Shown: positions 2,676 through 61,965 of the stretch, piece by piece | How the letters are laid out: the number at the start of each line of letters is the position of its first letter | How positions within the stretch are numbered: position 1 is the first letter of the stretch | Source: Syntrophorhabdales bacterium | GTDB lineage: Bacteria; Desulfobacterota; Syntrophorhabdia; Syntrophorhabdales; WCHB1-27 | Assembly (NCBI GenBank): GCA_035541455.1 | Contig: DATKNH010000013.1 | Span: 4,780-68,779, forward strand | Direction of reading: 5' to 3' | Length of the DNA stretch: 64,000 nt | Translations under genes and position numbers: made by a program | The notes under the pieces: generated by a model | Databases searched by the model: none | Told to the model about the DNA's origin: nothing | The model's input: only the letters and a program-made list of their open reading frames with translations

Positions 2676-2800
2676 CAGTGAACAGTTAATAGCGAGCAGT
2701 TGAAAGGAACAAACATCCGGTAAACAGTAAATGTATCAGCCGGATCAAGAGAAACGCTGCAGTGTTTACGGCTGCTCACTGCTTACCGCTCACTATTCCA
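2676..2800 (-). repeat. Long imperfect inverted repeat forming a structured 5' leader of the UbiD operon
   Basis: AGTGAACAGTTAATAGCGAGCAG (2677-2699) matches the reverse complement of 2772-2794 at 17/23 positions. An inner pair CCGGTAAACAG (2717-2727) / CAGTGTTTACGG (2760-2771) is also present. Lies between the predicted TSS (about 2802) and the start codon at 2667. Confidence 0.55.
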
Positions 2801-6777: not shown

Positions 6778-7842
6778 CTATTTTATCCTCACCCCCGTCA
6801 GTAACTGGCCTAAGATGCGGTCCATGGCATCTTTCTTCTGTTCAGTTTTTGGCGCAACCTCCTTCTTGCTCCAGACGGATTCAGGTCTCACCTGGAGAAT
6901 GATGATATTTTCGGGGAACTGAAAATCGGCATCGATCCCGAACTCGATGTCGTAAGGTTTTCCATAATAGTTCTCGATCAATTTTCCGACGCGGGCAAGC
7001 TCTTTCAATTCAAAGTGTGTGAGACAGGGAACACACCTCATCTCCTCAGGCACTTCTGTCTGCAGGATGTCGCTCCCATTCTCCCGGTAAACGCATTGGG
7101 TCTCTTTGCTGCCTATGGTTGTCTTTATGGTGTCGAGGGTGATCTTGTCGACAAGGTATGTGTCTGGCGTTACCATGCCGCTGACTACAGCCTCTCCGAG
7201 ACCGCAACTCGCATCAATCGAAATTTTTGAAAGATCGCCGTTCACGGGGTTAATGGTAAAGATTATCCCCGATACTCTGGAGTTGACCATCTTAGGGATA
7301 CCGACGCCTATATTGAAGAGGAACGGCATTCCCTTGTTCATGCGGTACATGATAGCTTCGACATTGTAGGCACTGGCCCAGCATCTCTTGACGTAGTCGA
7401 TAAGGTCCTTTTCTCCGCGTATATTGAGATATGTCTCCATCTGGCCCGGCATGGATACGGCGCCACTCGATCTGACTGCCACAGGACAGACGCCCGTCTT
7501 GCTCCTTTCGCAAAGCTTCTTGTAATTGGCGAGTATATCTTCTTCTATGTCGGATGGTACCTGCGCGTTTTCAATTAAGCGAATGCCTGTTTCGCTTGCC
7601 TGCTTTGCGGTTTCAAATGTCACCTGACCAAGCTCAGTTAGCAGTTTCTCCAGCTCTGATTTTATTCCCGTATCAACAATAAATTTCTCGTTGGCATAAA
7701 TGGTGATGCAAAATCCCGGAGCGACCGGTATGCCCGCTTTGATCATTTCTCCGAGATTGGCATTTTTCTTACCGACGAGTGGAAAGTCGTTACCGTCCAT
7801 TTCGTCGTACCAGATGGTGAGCCTTTTTTCTTTTTCTGTCAT
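6778..7842 (-). CDS. PEP-utilising enzyme, N-terminal ATP-binding (PPDK_N) module; phenylphosphate synthase beta (PpsB)-like
   Basis: FPLVGKKNANLGEMIKAGIPVAPGF resembles the PEP synthase/PPDK nucleotide-binding N-terminus. About 354 aa, with no His-swivel domain. Start at MTEKEK has a GGGGG RBS; the longer start would lie inside a repeat element. Confidence 0.8.
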   Translation of the reverse strand: MTEKEKRLTIWYDEMDGNDFPLVGKKNANLGEMIKAGIPVAPGFCITIYANEKFIVDTGIKSELEKLLTELGQVTFETAKQASETGIRLIENAQVPSDIEEDILANYKKLCERSKTGVCPVAVRSSGAVSMPGQMETYLNIRGEKDLIDYVKRCWASAYNVEAIMYRMNKGMPFLFNIGVGIPKMVNSRVSGIIFTINPVNGDLSKISIDASCGLGEAVVSGMVTPDTYLVDKITLDTIKTTIGSKETQCVYRENGSDILQTEVPEEMRCVPCLTHFELKELARVGKLIENYYGKPYDIEFGIDADFQFPENIIILQVRPESVWSKKEVAPKTEQKKDAMDRILGQLLTGVRIK

Positions 7843-7861
7843 CTTGTTACCCCCGGACTCT

Positions 7862-7953
7862 GAGGCTAAGGCCAAGGTCGAGGTTATGAAATAATTGCAT
7901 GATGCGAAGCGCTGATCTTTTCGTTTTTCTCAACCTCAACCTTAGCCTCAACC
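7862..7953. repeat. Intercistronic hairpin repeat, copy E1 (AAGGNN / NNCCTT word family)
   Basis: Left arm GAGGCTAAGGCCAAGGTCGAGGTT (7862-7885) pairs with right arm AACCTCAACCTTAGCCTCAACC (7932-7953). Shares TTTCGTTTTT (7919-7928) and ACCTCAACCT (7933-7942) with copy E2. Confidence 0.75.
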
Positions 7954-7962
7954 TGTTCTAAC

Positions 7963-9804
7963 CTATTTTGCTCTTTCCAGTATCTGCACTAACCCGGTGT
8001 CGCCGTTGATCCGGAGCAGATCACCCGTTTTTATCAGCTGTGTGCCCTTGCCTGTCCCGACAACGGTCGGCAATCCGTATTCCCTGCAGACAATGGCAGC
8101 GTGGCACATAGGGCCACCCACGTCGGTCACGGCCCCTGCAATCTTGACGAACGCAGGTGCCCAACTGGGCGACGTGGTGGTCGCCACCAGTATCTCTCCC
8201 TCTTGAAGATCAGCAAGCTGGTCCACGGTCTTCAGAACCCGGGCCTTTCCTTCGACCACACCGGATGAGCCTGCAGAGCCCTGGATCTCATTCTGCGCTC
8301 CTCCTTCTGCGGGGCCGGCGAGCCACTTCTGGAGGGCATCGTTGGTGACTCCCCAGAGGACAATGGTGAAGGGCTCTGTCACAACGTCTGGTGGCACGCC
8401 AAGCGCCGGCGGCGGGGTCCACTGTTTGAACTTTTCGTAAACACCCTTTCTCCAGGCAATCTCTTTCGGCCAGTAGGAAGGTCCTCTCGCCCTCACCCCC
8501 GTTGCCCAGGAGGTGACATGATCCCAGAGCGCCTGTTTGATCTCATCACGCCTCAGGAACCAGATGTCCTCGTCGGCATTTTCGATGAATCCCGCATTCT
8601 GAAGGATCTGGCCCACCTGGCGGACCTTCCCCCAGAAAAGGCTGTGAAACCAGTGCTCCACGTAGAAATTATGATCCTCAGCGTAAGGCAACACCAACCG
8701 AGCTATAGCCAGGCCTTGATCGAATGCCTCTCTGTCAGCATCGGTCTTTATCAGCTTCCTGTACTCACCCGCGATCCGATCACGCTCCTTGAGAATCTGG
8801 GCCGTCGGTCTGCCGATCTCCTTGCCTGCTTTAAGGGTTTTAATGTTAGTCCGGATATTATCGAAGGGAACGTTAAGATTATCATTCCAGCTGATATGTG
8901 TGTGATACCAGCCTGTGCCTGTAGACATGTAGAACCACGGGTAGCGCGCTTTTTCCAGTTCCTTGAGCCACTCCTTGCCCACAGGATGCTTCTCCAGTTC
9001 CTTCATGAGCTCATCGGCTTTCAATGGTTTGGCGAATATGTCTTCGATACCGACTTCGATAGCGAGTTTCGCCAGCCTTATCAGTTCAGCATCGGGCTTG
9101 AAAAGGATAGGATCAAAACCGGCCGACATCTTGACCAGCGTTGATATCGGTACATCTGGAAAAATCTGGTTAGCCGTGCCGAAGAAAGTCACCTGCGCAG
9201 CGTAACACAGGTTCAGGAATTCAAAATGATACTGCCAGCACAGCAGGCCAAGGTCGATCAGCTCATCGTATCTTCTGAGGAGCTCGTAGCCGCTCCCCTT
9301 TCCAAGCCCGTCCTTGATGACGCTGATATCCTCCATCACGGGAAGGTCGGTAAAGTTCATTGATTCGAGTTTATCGATCGTGGCGGTCATCTTCTTCTTC
9401 CAGTTTTCATACAACCTGTCCCAGTTCTGGAAATAATACCCTGCGCGCTCCATAAAATGCGGCACCCGCTTTCCCACTTCCTCAGGGTCGGGAACGCCGA
9501 CAGGGCTGATGTACACATACCCGTTAACGATCCTGTGGTCGATGCCGAGGGCGGGCGGGATGATGTAATGGCGGGTGTTATATTGCGAAAGAGCCAGAGA
9601 CCACGCTTCATCCCAGATGAGATCGAAAGGATAATGAGGCTCCGGGTAATGGAGGCCATCATAGAACCATATCTGGCTGCTCTCAAATTTGGCACGTTCA
9701 GGATCTTCTTTGGAGAAGATATACTGATAAGGGTACAGCTTCTCCCAGCCTTCCGTTCCCGGAATCATTGGTACATCGTGTGGGTCCGTAAATGTTTTCG
9801 CCAT
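7963..9804 (-). CDS. PEP-utilising enzyme with C-terminal phospho-histidine swivel domain; phenylphosphate synthase alpha (PpsA)-like
   Basis: 613-aa ORF. C-terminus GEILVATTTSPSWAPAFVKIAGAVTDVGGPMCHAAIVCREYGLPTVVGTG is the PEP-utiliser mobile domain with the catalytic His. Large non-PPDK N-terminal part, as in split phenol-phosphorylating enzymes. Confidence 0.8.
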   Translation of the reverse strand: MAKTFTDPHDVPMIPGTEGWEKLYPYQYIFSKEDPERAKFESSQIWFYDGLHYPEPHYPFDLIWDEAWSLALSQYNTRHYIIPPALGIDHRIVNGYVYISPVGVPDPEEVGKRVPHFMERAGYYFQNWDRLYENWKKKMTATIDKLESMNFTDLPVMEDISVIKDGLGKGSGYELLRRYDELIDLGLLCWQYHFEFLNLCYAAQVTFFGTANQIFPDVPISTLVKMSAGFDPILFKPDAELIRLAKLAIEVGIEDIFAKPLKADELMKELEKHPVGKEWLKELEKARYPWFYMSTGTGWYHTHISWNDNLNVPFDNIRTNIKTLKAGKEIGRPTAQILKERDRIAGEYRKLIKTDADREAFDQGLAIARLVLPYAEDHNFYVEHWFHSLFWGKVRQVGQILQNAGFIENADEDIWFLRRDEIKQALWDHVTSWATGVRARGPSYWPKEIAWRKGVYEKFKQWTPPPALGVPPDVVTEPFTIVLWGVTNDALQKWLAGPAEGGAQNEIQGSAGSSGVVEGKARVLKTVDQLADLQEGEILVATTTSPSWAPAFVKIAGAVTDVGGPMCHAAIVCREYGLPTVVGTGKGTQLIKTGDLLRINGDTGLVQILERAK

Positions 9805-10667: not shown

Positions 10668-10893
10668 ATGAATTTTGACAGACTTGTCCGCAAAAGAGTT
10701 GAGCCGGTAAATCGTAATCTGATAAACTGCGTCATGTCGCCAAAAGATCAGGCTCAAGGTTCAAGGCTAAAGGTTAAAGACAGGGGAGATGCTGGGTTTC
10801 GGCCGCAAACTCGTAGCCCACAACTGGTAAATCGTAACGGTTCTCTAAAGGCTCACCAAGGGATTCTCGGAATAGGCGGATCCGGGTAACCCC

Positions 10894-32568: not shown

Positions 32569-32592
32569 TGCGAAACCCCAAATTCCAAGCGT

Positions 32593-32683
32593 GAAATTCC
32601 AAACAAATATGCGAATATCAAATGTCCCAAGACTTAAACGCCGTCTGAGAGAATTTTGAATATTAGGACTTGTTTAGAATTTC
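32593..32683. repeat. AT-rich imperfect palindrome in a convergent intergenic region
   Basis: GAAATTCCAAACAA (32593-32606) matches the reverse complement of 32670-32683 at 13/14 positions. Inner arms are AATATCAAAT / AATATTCAAAAT. AAATTCCAA is also directly repeated. Confidence 0.6.
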
Positions 32684-32703
32684 GATATTGCGATTTAAAA
32701 TTT

Positions 32704-32728
32704 AACGTGGATGAATTTCATTCACGTT
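32704..32728 (-). terminator. Rho-independent terminator-like hairpin after the HAD phosphatase gene
   Basis: 10-bp stem (AACGTGGATG / CATTCACGTT, including one G-T pair) with loop AATTT, followed on the minus strand by AAAUUUUAAAU. Confidence 0.5.
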
Positions 32729-37198: not shown

Positions 37199-38221
37199 CT
37201 AGTGCGACTTTAGATACTCGAGGCAAAACTTAAGGACTTCATCGCCGGGAAGTCCTTTTGCCTTCATGTTATTCGCGTACTCATCCAGCAGGGGCCTTAC
37301 CTGGGCAGCCCATCGCGCGTCTTCCTCTTTTGAGAGGGCTATGATTTTGCTACCCCGCGCCTGTACCAGATCCATGGCTTCTTTGTCTATCTCATCCCAT
37401 GCCTTGCCCTCTTTCTCGATCCACTCCTCGTTGATCTTCTCGATTATTTTCTGATCCACAGGAGAGATGGAATTCCACTTCGCCTTGTTCATGACGACAA
37501 AATGTGCAGAGGTGTAAGCCGCCCCGTAATCCAGCGTATGGCTGCTGACGACTTCTGCCAGCTTCCATCCTTTCATCGCCTCAAAAGGACAAAGAATGGC
37601 ATCTGCGACGCCTTTGGAGAGGGCGTCGTATGACTCACCCATTGGCATGCCGACAGGCGCGCCCCCAAGAGCCAGAGCAATGTTCGCTGCTACACCTTGA
37701 GATCTGATCTTGAGACCTTTGACATCTTCGAGCTTCATGACCGGTTTCTTGCTGTGAAGGAGACCCGGGCCGTGGCTGTAAAAATAGAGGACCTTCGTCT
37801 CATCCCATTCCTTAGGCTTAAACTTGTTGTAGAATGCATTGGTCATGTGCGTTGCCTGCGTGGCGCTCTTGTAACCGAGAGGGAGACCGACAACCTCGGT
37901 GAGCGGAAACTTTCCTCTGGTATAGGCCGCATCAGCGAGACCGATGTCGGCGATGCCCTTAACCAAGCTGTCGTATGTCTGCACGGCAGGCGTAAGCGTG
38001 TTGTTGGGGTACACCGTTACCTTCACCCGTCCATTGGTCCTCTTTTCAACCTCCTTACACCAGTCATTGACTACCTGACTCTGCCGGTGCGGAGCCGGAA
38101 ACATGGTCGAATAGCGGAGCGTAATGGTTTTTTCTTCGGCTGCGCCTCCCTGACTAGGGATGAGGCAGATAAGAAAAGCCAGCATGATAAGACCGATGCC
38201 AACAACAGAAAACTTTTTCAT
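37199..38221 (-). CDS. dctP: TRAP transporter substrate-binding protein, DctP family (divergent member)
   Basis: 340 aa with a signal peptide. TLRYSTMFPAPHRQSQVVNDWCKEVEKRTNGRVKVTVYPNNTL is DctP-like. AAGGAGG RBS. Confidence 0.8.
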   Translation of the reverse strand: MKKFSVVGIGLIMLAFLICLIPSQGGAAEEKTITLRYSTMFPAPHRQSQVVNDWCKEVEKRTNGRVKVTVYPNNTLTPAVQTYDSLVKGIADIGLADAAYTRGKFPLTEVVGLPLGYKSATQATHMTNAFYNKFKPKEWDETKVLYFYSHGPGLLHSKKPVMKLEDVKGLKIRSQGVAANIALALGGAPVGMPMGESYDALSKGVADAILCPFEAMKGWKLAEVVSSHTLDYGAAYTSAHFVVMNKAKWNSISPVDQKIIEKINEEWIEKEGKAWDEIDKEAMDLVQARGSKIIALSKEEDARWAAQVRPLLDEYANNMKAKGLPGDEVLKFCLEYLKSH

Positions 38222-38247: not shown

Positions 38248-38373
38248 AGGTTAAGGATAGAACAAGGTGAAGGCAGAAGCAGGCAGAGGAAAAAACGAAA
38301 TAAAGGTTGAGACAAAGCGTACACCACTTTCGTTTTTATCTTAACCTTCGCTTCAGCCTTTACCTCAACCTGC
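38248..38373. repeat. Intercistronic hairpin repeat, copy E2
   Basis: Left arm AGGTTAAGGATAGAACAAGGTGAAGGCAGAAGC pairs with right arm CGCTTCAGCCTTTACCTCAACCT. An inner AAAAACGAAA / TTTCGTTTTT pair is present. Shares 10-mers with E1 (ACCTCAACCT, TTTCGTTTTT) and words with E3 (AGGTTAAGG, AGGTGAAGGC). Confidence 0.75.
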
Positions 38374-38397
38374 TTTATCTTTTTCCTGTTTTCTGTC

Positions 38398-39792
38398 TTA
38401 GACCAGGTCCTCCGGATTTGGAATAAACTTCTTCAGATCTATCCGTTTCATTACATCCTCAGGTATAGCTGCCACAGGGGGCAGATCCTTGCGGAACGGC
38501 TTTGCGGTCGCGTCTATGCCCACTTTTGTCACGACAGCCTCTTGCGCTGACGACAGATCAAGGTCCGTACCGAGCACGCCCGGCAGGATCATTACGTCCC
38601 TGTCTGCCTGCACCCTTGTGGCGAGCGCCCAGGTCATTTGGGCACCATTGTCCAGGTCGATGTCGGTATCAACGCAGACAACGTACTTGAGGTACAGGTC
38701 ATTGGCAAATGCCGCAAGGATAGCCTGTTTTGGCTGCCCCGCATGTTTCTTATCGATTTGAATAAACCCGTACCACCAACCTGCTGCCGCGATGAATTTG
38801 AATTTCTTTACGTCGGGTACGGCCTCTTTAATTTTGCGGTTCATAAAGGAATGTTGCGGGATACGGCCCATCAGCATACCCTTGCTCGGCCAGGCTCCCA
38901 TGTCGTGCACGATCGGGTTCTTCCTATGGGTTATCGCTGTGATCTTTACAGGGTGGCGCATGGCCACCTGGTGGTACTTGGTGAAATCACCCCACGGGCC
39001 TTCCTGCTCCCGGACACCCGGGGGGATGACGCCTTCTATGATGATCTCGGCACGTGCGGGCACAAGTACGTCGCTTGTCTCGCATCTCACCACCTCAAGG
39101 GGCTCTCCCATCAGGCTTCCCGCAATGTCAAATTCTGAAGGTGGATGGCTCACACGGCTCTGAAAAGCGGTAGCCCACGCAGGATGAAGCCCTATGGCAA
39201 ATGCGATAGGCATCGGCTCGTTGCGTTCCATGTAATCATTATAGATGTGCCAGAAATGACGACCGGGCGTGATGTGAGTTACACCGAGGTGCGGCTTTTT
39301 TACCATGAAGCGGTAGTGAGAGCAATGGGGAGCATTTATCTTTCTATCCATCACTATGCCCACCGCCCTTGTGAGATAAGGCGCTTCGCCCTTGTGATGA
39401 GTGATAAAAGGGAAACGCGTCATATCCGCCTTTTTGCCCGTGAGTACAACATCCCTGCAAGGAGCATCTTCTTTCTTGATCTCCTTTGCGGGATACTTAT
39501 TCAGCCGGATTGCCTCCTCTTCCTTCTCGCCGTAAAAGTCTTCAACTCTTTGCGGAGGGATACCAAGGGCGAGGCTGTACTTGGTGGCGCTGGTCTCGGT
39601 ATTACATACGACAGGCGTGCTGTACCCTTTCACCTTCTCGAAGAGAACCATGGGGTATTTGCCCATAAGGTCCAGTTTCTTTACTATTGCGGTGATCTCA
39701 TACTTGGGATCAACCTCCCGCGTGACCCTCACGAACTCCTGCGGCAGCTCTCTTTCGCAATCCGCCATGAACGTCCTTAAATCTCTCGCCAT
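38398..39792 (-). CDS. UbiD-family (prFMN-dependent) decarboxylase, second distant paralog
   Basis: About 464 aa from MARDLRTFMADCE (AGGAGG RBS). UbiD-like N-terminus ...YPMVLFEKVKGY and family-typical length. Confidence 0.85.
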   Translation of the reverse strand: MARDLRTFMADCERELPQEFVRVTREVDPKYEITAIVKKLDLMGKYPMVLFEKVKGYSTPVVCNTETSATKYSLALGIPPQRVEDFYGEKEEEAIRLNKYPAKEIKKEDAPCRDVVLTGKKADMTRFPFITHHKGEAPYLTRAVGIVMDRKINAPHCSHYRFMVKKPHLGVTHITPGRHFWHIYNDYMERNEPMPIAFAIGLHPAWATAFQSRVSHPPSEFDIAGSLMGEPLEVVRCETSDVLVPARAEIIIEGVIPPGVREQEGPWGDFTKYHQVAMRHPVKITAITHRKNPIVHDMGAWPSKGMLMGRIPQHSFMNRKIKEAVPDVKKFKFIAAAGWWYGFIQIDKKHAGQPKQAILAAFANDLYLKYVVCVDTDIDLDNGAQMTWALATRVQADRDVMILPGVLGTDLDLSSAQEAVVTKVGIDATAKPFRKDLPPVAAIPEDVMKRIDLKKFIPNPEDLV

Positions 39793-39833
39793 TAATAAGC
39801 CCTCCTTAAGGAACACATTTCACGCTAGAGTAA

Positions 39834-46935: not shown

Positions 46936-46964
46936 AAGAACCAAGCTTGAAGCTTACGGCTCGA

Positions 46965-47075
46965 GGCAAAAGGTTAAGGGCCAAAGGTGAAGGCCAAAGG
47001 CCAAAAGTTAAACGCTAACAGTTACAAGTTCTGTATGTTTCTCCCGTTAGCCGTGGGCCGTCAGCCGTTAACCGT
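46965..47075. repeat. Intergenic word-repeat element, copy E3 (weaker hairpin)
   Basis: Left arm AGGTTAAGGGCCAAAGGTGAAGGCCAAAGGCC shares AGGTTAAGG and AGGTGAAGGC, in the same order, with E2. Right arm CCGTTAGCCGTGGGCCGTCAGCCGTTAACCG is only partly complementary (about 12/18 over the best stretch). Confidence 0.55.
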
Positions 47076-47079
47076 CTTT

Positions 47080-54335: not shown

Positions 54336-54341
54336 AGTGAG

Positions 54342-54423
54342 GGGCTAGCGCTAGCGGCAAAGGGCTAATGGCTCATGGCTTCAAACCTTTTGTCCTTGGG
54401 CCCTTTGCCTTTAGCCGGTTTTT
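54342..54423 (+). terminator. Intra-operon hairpin followed by a T-run (attenuator/terminator-like), word-repeat style
   Basis: GGCAAAGGGC (54356-54365) is perfectly complementary to GCCCTTTGCC (54400-54409). An outer pair GGCTAG / TTAGCC is present. It is followed by GGTTTTT and then the GAGGAGAG RBS of the next gene. Confidence 0.55.
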
Positions 54424-54437
54424 AGAGGAGAGATGCT

Positions 54438-61782: not shown

Positions 61783-61820
61783 CGCACCCTCCTTTCTTCC
61801 GATGGGCGATCGCTCACTGC

Positions 61821-61950
61821 GTTCGCTAGGACGACCGCTTACGCTAGGACGACCGCACTACGTTGCCTAGGACGCAAAAAGCTTTTTCGTCCATCGTCCT
61901 AGGGAGCGAAAGCGACCGGTCGTCCCTCGTCCATCGGTAATTATCGTCCC
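61821..61950. repeat. Composite direct and inverted repeat structure in the kinase / CheB-CheR intergenic region
   Basis: GCTAGGACGACCGC occurs twice (61825-61838, 61843-61856). CCTAGGACG (61866-61874) faces CGTCCTAGG (61895-61903) around the perfect palindrome AAAAAGCTTTTT (61876-61887). Further CGTCC copies start at 61888, 61921, 61928 and 61945, and CGGTCGTCC lies at 61917-61925. Confidence 0.8.
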
Positions 61951-61965
61951 TCTTCCATCTGTCTT

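Follow-up and report, generated by a model that had tools for sequence, protein, structure and literature searches.

What are the long imperfect palindromes that lie between catabolic genes of an uncultured Syntrophorhabdales bacterium, and what might they do there? The question is raised by a 64 kb stretch of contig DATKNH010000013.1 (assembly GCA_035541455.1), here called the window, in which one such element (E1) separates a ppsA-like from a ppsB-like gene, a second (E2) follows a UbiD gene and a third (E3) follows the gene for the beta subunit of a 2-oxoacid oxidoreductase (OFOR). E1 and E2 are copies of a real, clade-restricted, dispersed repeat family, found, in the DNA searched, in the source metagenome-assembled genome (MAG) and its closest sister species only; a role as hairpins in mRNA is the reading towards which we lean.

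Coordinates that follow no L-number are those of the whole window, and L-numbers (L009, L213 etc.) are locus labels of relatives' DNA. An initial annotation of the window had placed related elements at 7862-7953 (E1), 38248-38373 (E2), 46965-47075 (E3), about 10765-10790 (a solo stretch), 54342-54423 and 2676-2800, and sequences of this kind were found at all of these positions. For E1, E2 and E3 it had described the strand opposite to the mRNA: their neighbouring genes all lie on the minus strand, and the sense RNA is therefore the reverse complement of the strand first read.

A dispersed repeat family that includes E1 and E2

The 10-mers by which the elements had been grouped are real. TTTCGTTTTT (three matches in the window, all in E1 or E2; 0.12 expected) and ACCTCAACCT (two matches; 0.15 expected) are confined to E1 and E2, and AGGTGAAGGC and AGGTTAAGG (two matches each; 0.22 and 0.41 expected) to E2 and E3; none occurs elsewhere in the window.

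The ppsA-ppsB spacer was gathered from 46 relatives, to which four more close relatives were added later; the E2 and E3 regions and the paralogous DctP loci were gathered from four sister species in GTDB, a query with the DctP protein leading to the clade genomes and these paralogues. Covariance model R1 was built from three E1 orthologues only and model R2 from E2-type copies. R1 detected E2 of L208 (E = 7e-6), E2 of the window (6e-4) and E3 of L065 (0.015); its best match in ~295 kb of non-clade loci had E = 4.7. R2 detected E1 of L009 (6e-5), of the window (1.6e-3) and of L248-L251 (2.5e-6 to 7e-5), as well as E3 of L064 (1e-24) and the copy L213a (1e-11), and gave no match below E = 0.1 in ~740 kb of non-clade DNA. 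Since each model detects the other's elements, E1 and E2 are homologous.

Further copies came to light with R1 at L213 11074-11143, L213 20036-20137 and L211 2495-2585. They share ~55 nt of the E2 5' half (GGAAAAAGATAnAGnAGGTnGAGGTAAGGACTAAAGCnAAGGT), have folding energies of -49 to -63 kcal/mol (z -5.3 to -9.6) and lie between convergent genes, downstream of other genes, so that the family is spread over different loci and is more than a set of orthologues. Its non-orthologous intergenic loci are the E1, E2 and E3 slots, L213a, L213b and L211; ten distinct loci were counted in 236 kb of clade DNA. The covariance-model check that had been proposed for the elements, run here on the clade loci, thus extends the family beyond E1-E3, and the claim that structured palindromes sit directly after stop codons within operons stands, with operon ends as a further site. 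E3 of L064 scores best on the strand opposite its genes, which means that orientation relative to transcription is not fixed.

A full family copy is an imperfect palindrome of 100-150 nt, with the consensus 5' half CAGGAAAAAGATAAAGCAGGTnGAGGTAAGGACTAAAGCnAAGGT... and a complementary 3' half. Individual copies span 90-150 nt, have a G+C content of 38-47% and terminate in CAGG...CCTG. The arms are made of tandem words of 6-7 nt: the 5' arm repeats AGGYNR, and the 3' arm repeats the CCT words complementary to it; Tandem Repeats Finder (TRF) gives a period of 6 for the E1 arm and of 7 for E3, the solo array and the arrays of L009 and L013. A heptamer sub-type, in which GGCTAAN words face CCTTTAG words, comprises E3 of the window, the 54342 element and the solo stretch; neither model detected these window copies. 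The 54342 element has a core stem of 11 bp (GGCAAAGGGCC/GGCCCTTTGCC, then GGTTTTT) and aligns best with the non-orthologous E3 copy of L065 (common GGCTTCAA-CCTTTGTCC...GCCTTTA-CC). The link between the heptamer sub-type and the E1/E2 type rests on the common word style and on intermediate copies in relatives. Two elements had been called similar in style; the assignment suits the 54342 element, as a member of this sub-type, and applies to 2676-2800 in construction only, since that element belongs to a separate xACTGxT heptamer family and lies in a 5' untranslated region (UTR).

Two word-level statistics were set aside. A regular-expression count of AGG arrays followed by CCT arrays, compared with the reverse order, gave 4 vs 0 in the clade; the cases are too few for a conclusion, and the palindrome reads AGG-first on both strands anyway. 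The inverted-partner test for tandem arrays was passed by 26/46 arrays and by 18/46 shuffled controls; with G.U pairs allowed and 14 of 16 matches sufficing, it was too permissive.

Rfam gave no match at gathering scores. The sole hit with E <1 was on E2, to the precursor of plant MIR408; at 21.9 bits, where the threshold is 64, it is a chance match of long hairpins. As far as Rfam and the literature searched show, the family is undescribed so far; its general kind is known, and the tandem-word architecture is unusual.

AGG-family copies are adjoined by a further repeat, not related to them, whose terminal inverted repeats are GTGCAAACGCGTATTCGCG ... CGCGAATACGCGTTTGCAC (L213 11165-11295, L210 11100-11240, L065 9790-9960), and the E2 spacer of L065 is split by a similar insertion of ~250 nt.

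Placement, folding and strand

Family copies start 3-13 nt after a stop codon and, within operons, end just before the next Shine-Dalgarno sequence (SD). In sense orientation E1, E2 and E3 begin a few bases past the stop codon, end ~20-30 nt before the next start and leave the SD free; for E1 the ppsA-like stop codon is at 7963-7965 and the ppsB-like ATG at 7842, and the SD (GGGGG) lies between the stem and the ATG. The annotated gene context was borne out by domain families: E1 between PEP-utilizers and PPDK_N, E2 after UbiD and E3 after TPP_enzyme_C (OFOR beta). A scan of the three spacers showed no promoter-like or terminator-like site, which is consistent with read-through.

Folding energies were compared with dinucleotide shuffles (z-scores). 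E1 as sense RNA folds at -45.7 kcal/mol (z -5.3), with five G.U pairs among its 24 consecutive pairs, and E2 at -47 kcal/mol (z -4.7). That each element forms a long imperfect hairpin, as had been stated, is true of these two; E3 (z -0.9 sense, -1.6 antisense), 54336-54437 (z +0.4) and 2668-2810 (z -1.7) folded no better than shuffles in the window. The spacers orthologous to E3 do fold in relatives (L064, -53 kcal/mol, z -4.8; L065, -45 kcal/mol, an energy without shuffle control). All strong copies have z-scores of -4.7 to -9.6, and the RNAalifold consensus has 41 pairs across 137 model positions. The loops are 40-50 nt long, and A5/U5 stretches at the stem base occur only in some copies at convergent gene ends (L213a). 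A scan for a short GC-rich stem with a U-tract found no canonical intrinsic terminator at E1, E2 or E3; in agreement with the earlier description that a clear U-tract is missing, none of the elements is a terminator of this form.

Hairpins at the same positions are also found in relatives. The ppsA-ppsB spacer carries a significant hairpin in 15/22 relatives, against 21% of all co-directional spacers (~16% minus these 15). Its sequence differs by lineage, and outside the close clade (<~86% protein identity) it is an unrelated GC-rich stem of 10-15 bp. The site downstream of one DctP paralogue is occupied by family copies in L213 and L211 and, at the same position, by a canonical terminator of A-tract, GC stem and U-tract in L210 (z -5.7). 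The family therefore sits where ordinary mRNA stem-loops sit.

E1 pairs better as sense RNA. The antisense RNA of the window copy folds at -36.5 kcal/mol, and in 7/8 E1 orthologues the sense RNA is the more stable by 3.8-19 kcal/mol. An alignment of six E1 sequences has 24 G.U cells vs 4 A.C cells; in L249 and L250 each GGTTGA word stands opposite CCTTAA, so that every word contributes a G.U pair to the sense RNA and an A.C mismatch to the opposite strand. Pairs with compensatory double changes number three in E1 and two in E2 (TTGA/TCAA vs TCAA/TTGA in L064).

Word number and spacer turnover

The number of words per arm ranges from two to five between species. E1 has two in L015 and four in the window, L009, L014 and L248; L249 and L250, otherwise nearly identical, have five and four, the difference being one hexamer in the 5' arm alone. 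In L013 the E1 slot holds two direct AGG arrays, and the complementary arm is absent. The E2 slot holds a two-word remnant in L207 and a nested double element in L208. Read from the sequences, these changes in word number are whole-unit slippage on the time scale of species divergence. A protein identical to the ppsB-like one is encoded on metagenome contigs and is assigned by one source to a Syntrophorhabdales MAG. Eight contigs from this population, which match the window at 99.8-99.9% identity where they align, had an identical E1, and neither E1 nor the solo array showed a change in word number; the same held for the 2676-2800 element on the five of these contigs that reach it. The elements thus show no sign of being fast contingency loci.

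The spacer slots appear to be conserved while their word content turns over. In the UbiD 5' UTR, where the window has a weak hairpin only, ACTGATC is repeated in tandem 10.7 times in L009 (15078-15152) and 3.9 times in L013 (15155-15181). The spacer with the solo array holds AAGGYTN x4 in the window, TGACCCA x4.9 in L009 (7049-7082) and no array in L013 (7040-7130). The convergent spacer at 32575-32724, which in the window forms a hairpin of AAATTC words (z -3.3 on one strand, -2.6 on the other), has CGGGTCA x4 in L064 (15280-15308) and L013 (2483-2510). (TGACCCA)n and (CGGGTCA)n arrays occupy the same kinds of slots in genomes of the same clade. Overall, 46/90 tandem arrays of period 5-9 are intergenic though only 14% of the DNA is, and 25/46 of these have period 7.

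Table 1. Repeat elements of the window and the genes beside E1 and E2
Feature	Positions	Strand	Details
E1 palindromic repeat	7858..7957	-	24 consecutive pairs; R1 98.7 bits; R2 E = 1.6e-3; eight orthologues found
E1 sense 5' arm	7931-7954	-	CAGGTT GAGGCT AAGGTT GAGGTT
E1 sense 3' arm	7863-7886	-	
ppsA-like gene, PEP-utilizers	7963-9804	-	Pfam families precomputed for identical contigs
ppsB-like gene, PPDK_N	6778-7842	-	Pfam families precomputed for identical contigs
E2, full-length family copy	38256..38389	-	fold; R1 E = 6e-4; orthologues in L064, L065, L208
UbiD gene upstream of E2	38398-39816	-	stop codon 38398-38400
DctP-type binding-protein gene downstream of E2	37199-38221	-	ATG at 38221
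E3, degenerate heptamer sub-type copy	46960..47078	-	TRF period 7; between OFOR beta (TPP_enzyme_C) and GntR/FCD regulator genes
E3 sense 5' array, NACGGYY words	47044-47076	-	
E3 sense 3' array, CCTTTGG-type words	46964-47005	-	
Heptamer sub-type copy	54342..54423	+	between OFOR alpha and Pyr_redox_2 genes
Solo direct array CAAGGTT CAAGGCT AAAGGTT AAAG	10750..10779	+	TRF period 7, 4.3 copies
xACTGxT heptamer hairpin in UbiD-gene 5' UTR	2676..2800	-	ends immediately ahead of SD
Long hairpin of AAATTC-type words	32575..32724		spacer of convergent amidohydrolase and HAD-hydrolase genes

The solo array lies upstream of an AmpG-like gene of the major facilitator superfamily (MFS), as had been noted (the domain assignment is MFS/Acatn permease), and its complementary arm is absent. 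It is flanked, in the region of the divergent pps operon and MFS promoters, by the direct repeat GGTAAATCGTAA (10706-10717 and 10826-10837); L009 and L013 carry TAAATTGTAATCTG / TAAATTATAATCTG at the position of the first repeat, and these repeats and their counterparts may be binding sites of a regulator. Near the 2676-2800 element there is a promoter-like TTGACA-16-TAGAAT at 2836->2809. Another palindrome, of CTAGGACGAC / GTCGTCCTAG words, occupies 61783-61965 and folds at -66 to -71 kcal/mol (z about -3 to -3.7); on one side of it a CheB-CheR-PAS fusion gene starts, and on the other a PAS histidine kinase / receiver gene ends. The phenol-degradation locus of L248 and L249 has an NiFe-hydrogenase cluster between the LpdD-chaperone and LysR genes; the corresponding part of the window (1-20400) is without the cluster.

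Possible function and relation to known repeats

On balance we lean towards reading the family as a lineage-specific, dispersed set of transcribed palindromes of the ERIC (enterobacterial repetitive intergenic consensus) or REP (repetitive extragenic palindrome) kind, which would form intercistronic or 3'-end hairpins in mRNA and be remodelled by slippage; this same judgement takes in E3, the 54342 element and the solo array as probable, more decayed heptamer relatives of E1 and E2. A transcribed copy would fold in the mRNA into a hairpin of 20-40 bp. Such a hairpin could block 3'-5' exonucleases and so stabilise the upstream cistron, a duplex of RNase III length could uncouple the decay of neighbouring cistrons, and at convergent gene ends the hairpin may act as a terminator-like structure. 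Replication slippage within an arm would change the number of words and with it the length of the stem. An action on polycistronic mRNA had already been suggested; it is the best-supported reading, from the position of the elements, their equivalence in slot with hairpins and terminators and the sense-biased pairing of E1, and the effect itself is inferred.

Several points weigh against this reading. Co-transcription and the effect on mRNA are inferred from sequence, as is the route by which the copies spread. Covariation is weak: in three E1 orthologues 93% of the cells are paired, but 145/500 shuffles reach the observed values. Among 229 co-directional spacers the sense strand is the more stable in 38 vs 14 hairpin spacers and in 104 vs 57 non-hairpin spacers too, so that its advantage is partly a general property of spacers in these genomes; the overall energy comparison is for this reason not diagnostic, and only the much larger E1-specific differences were used as evidence. 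For E2 of the window it is the antisense RNA that has the greater stability (+6.8 kcal/mol), and E3 and the 54342 copy no longer fold significantly there. The missing hairpin in the E1 slot of L013 and the remnant in the E2 slot of L207 indicate that the hairpin is dispensable in some lineages.

The main rival is that the elements are selfish or neutral DNA, either palindromes like miniature inverted-repeat transposable elements (MITEs) or slippage arrays tolerated in spacers, with the hairpin a by-product of the inverted repeat. This is possible, if clearly the less probable account, and is kept alive by variable presence and by decayed copies (E3, the 54342 element): close species have a remnant (L207), direct arrays only (L013) or a canonical terminator (L210), the same spacers hold different word arrays in different species, and copies lie in both orientations relative to transcription, that of L064 E3 being best on the antisense strand. 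The intergenic arrays are, moreover, mostly of period 7, a period ascribed to polymerase slippage (Mrazek et al., as cited in PMC4679880). This account is harder to square with the E1 stem, which keeps 20-24 bp in 7/9 species while its words change and whose mismatches are nearly all G.U on the sense strand, with the presence of a pps spacer hairpin across distant lineages and with the fact that the elements end before the SD. An action of the DNA itself, as is partly the case for REP/BIME elements, through sites bound or cut by gyrase, IHF, a nucleoid protein or a transposase or through cruciforms affecting supercoiling or recombination, is unlikely. Palindromes in either orientation, in intergenic DNA that includes convergent gene ends, do recall the REPs of Pseudomonas, by analogy only (PMC3184786); but the many G.U positions are A.C mismatches in DNA and would make poor cruciform arms, E1 of L250 folds at -44 kcal/mol as sense RNA vs -25 as antisense, and none of the window genes that were scanned with Pfam, or that are annotated on identical contigs, was a transposase or RAYT (REP-associated tyrosine transposase) gene.

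Still less probable is a role of the AGG words as a platform for a single-strand RNA-binding protein (of the CsrA, TRAP, HutP, S1 or Csp type) or as a decoy SD or anti-SD. TRAP and HutP sites consist of words that recur every 6-7 nt, and the word period here is the same. Partnerless direct arrays exist (the solo array of the window, L013), and the likeness of GAGGU and ACCUC to SD and anti-SD is real as a likeness of sequence. S1, Csp and Csr proteins have been proposed as binders of TAACTGA repeats (PMC4679880). The E1 sense RNA, however, has no GGA, the core of the CsrA site, and its AGG words lie inside the stem and are not presented in a loop, which speaks against the CsrA-type resemblance put forward in the initial annotation; the words of most copies form part of a stable paired stem, so are not single-stranded, and they vary by locus and by species. 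That the elements are unrelated low-complexity hairpins, alike by chance, is hardly credible. Generic AGGYTR x4 arrays are common in viral contigs, where a 17-base E1/E2 pattern has 19 matches; yet two independent models detect each other's elements with E = 1e-3 to 1e-24 and only within the clade, and the shared 10-mers are absent from the rest of the window. Chance is thereby refuted for E1 and E2, and keeps some plausibility for the link between the E1/E2 type and the heptamer type of E3 and 54342.

Hairpins or long perfect arrays built from their own words of 7-9 nt were also seen in unrelated Desulfobacterota MAGs outside the clade, mostly labelled delta proteobacteria (L215 8022-8117 and 1214-1293; L239 11140-11234; L219 697-791; L052 3639-3709; L053 3553-3614); one example, of GTGGCCA/CACTGAC, has a folding energy of -57 to -68 kcal/mol. 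Arms built from tandem words are therefore found outside the AGG family too. A rather speculative extension would make the AGG/CCT family one local form of a wider process, for the most part undescribed, by which spacers of Syntrophorhabdales and other Desulfobacterota repeatedly gain long hairpins with balanced arms, each an array of a 6-9 nt word specific to the locus, that lengthen and shorten through hairpin-coupled slippage, possibly dependent on transcription and RNase III as at Haemophilus influenzae hmw, and which would offer an evolvable tuning of cistron stoichiometry in catabolic operons.

If the hairpins of the family act on mRNA, they would set relative subunit expression post-transcriptionally in uncultured syntrophic degraders of aromatic compounds, for phenylphosphate synthase, UbiD-type carboxylases, tripartite ATP-independent periplasmic (TRAP) transporters and 2-oxoacid oxidoreductases. 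Two classes of repeat that tend to be considered apart come together in these elements, the dispersed palindromes of the REP/ERIC kind and the tandem heptamers known as simple sequence repeats (SSRs) or short tandemly repeated repetitive (STRR) sequences. Their orthologue series, in which arms gain or lose whole words, may help to explain the origin of heptamer-repeat hairpins such as cyanobacterial STRRs and TAACTGA repeats; R1 and R2 offer a means of annotating the family, whose elements are possible strain markers for the clade.

Among known palindromes, ERIC, YPAL and Correia elements (Enterobacteriaceae, Yersinia and Neisseria) resemble the family in being imperfect palindromes over their whole length (~100-160 nt) that are dispersed, intergenic, in either orientation and often at 3' ends, co-transcription being presumed for the present elements. 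The single long hairpins found here, in dispersed, non-orthologous intergenic copies of both orientations, are as expected of ERIC- or MITE-like repeats, whose palindromes measure ~100-170 nt. RNA hairpins alter mRNA decay through RNase E in the case of ERIC and through RNase III in that of Correia elements (PMC3184786, PMC2649163). The family has no sequence relation to them, and its arms, unlike theirs, are tandem arrays of 6-7 nt words that change in number; in the flanks inspected no target-site duplication or terminal TA was recognised (termini CAGGTAAGG...CCTTACCTG). REPs and bacterial interspersed mosaic elements (BIMEs) of E. coli and pseudomonads are likewise extragenic palindromes after stop codons, within operons or between convergent genes, and a REP role as mRNA stabiliser is known from malE-malF (Stern et al. 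1988, as cited in PMC3184786). REP units are, however, GC-rich, 20-40 nt long and marked by a conserved GTAG-type head and a link to RAYT (IS200/IS605-like Y1) transposases, none of which was seen here; by the length, G+C content and termini of its copies, and with no GTAG head, the family does not belong to the REP/BIME class to which it had been compared. Extragenic REP copies number tens to hundreds per genome; for the present family the count is the ten loci in 236 kb given above.

Tandem heptamers supply the other comparison. Those of the TAACTGA repeats (Beggiatoaceae, cyanobacteria, Bacteroidetes) and of the Geobacter metallireducens heptanucleotide elements, all of unknown function (PMC4679880, PMC2700814), are, like the arrays of this clade, intergenic and often placed just upstream of start codons, and number many per genome; they are mainly direct repeats of one word, whereas the present arrays are mostly inverted hairpin pairs of varied words. 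The intergenic period-7 arrays of the clade echo the heptamer repeats of cyanobacteria, Beggiatoaceae and G. metallireducens (PMC4679880, PMC2700814, PMC2408588). Cyanobacterial STRR sequences, as in the hupS-hupL spacer, are tandem heptamers able to form a hairpin between the cistrons of an operon, for which transcript stabilisation or translational coupling has been proposed and is unproven (PMC2670836). As in STRR sequences, whose units measure 5-11 nt and typically 7, the tandem units found here, of 6 or 7 nt, lie in intergenic DNA and show whole-unit changes in copy number between relatives, and the ACTG-type words of 2676-2800 match STRR words such as CCACTGACTACTGAC and CACTGAC/TACTGAC (PMC2408588) and the TAACTGA repeats of Beggiatoaceae. 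The present family differs in phylum and in its AGG/CCT words, and its copies share a long consensus beyond the words.

In the 5' UTR of H. influenzae hmw1A a heptamer-repeat hairpin is cleaved by RNase III, and the number of repeats sets expression (PMC12721329). There, as here, a long RNA hairpin has a tandem repeat of 7 nt as one of its arms; but whereas hmw1A is one contingency locus that undergoes rapid phase variation, the present clade has many dispersed copies, and word number did not vary among the eight same-population contigs. As a precedent in mechanism hmw1A would be the best, above all for the element in the UbiD 5' UTR at 2676-2800, and the cyanobacterial STRR hairpins and the hmw heptamer hairpin together are the closest precedents for the elements described here.

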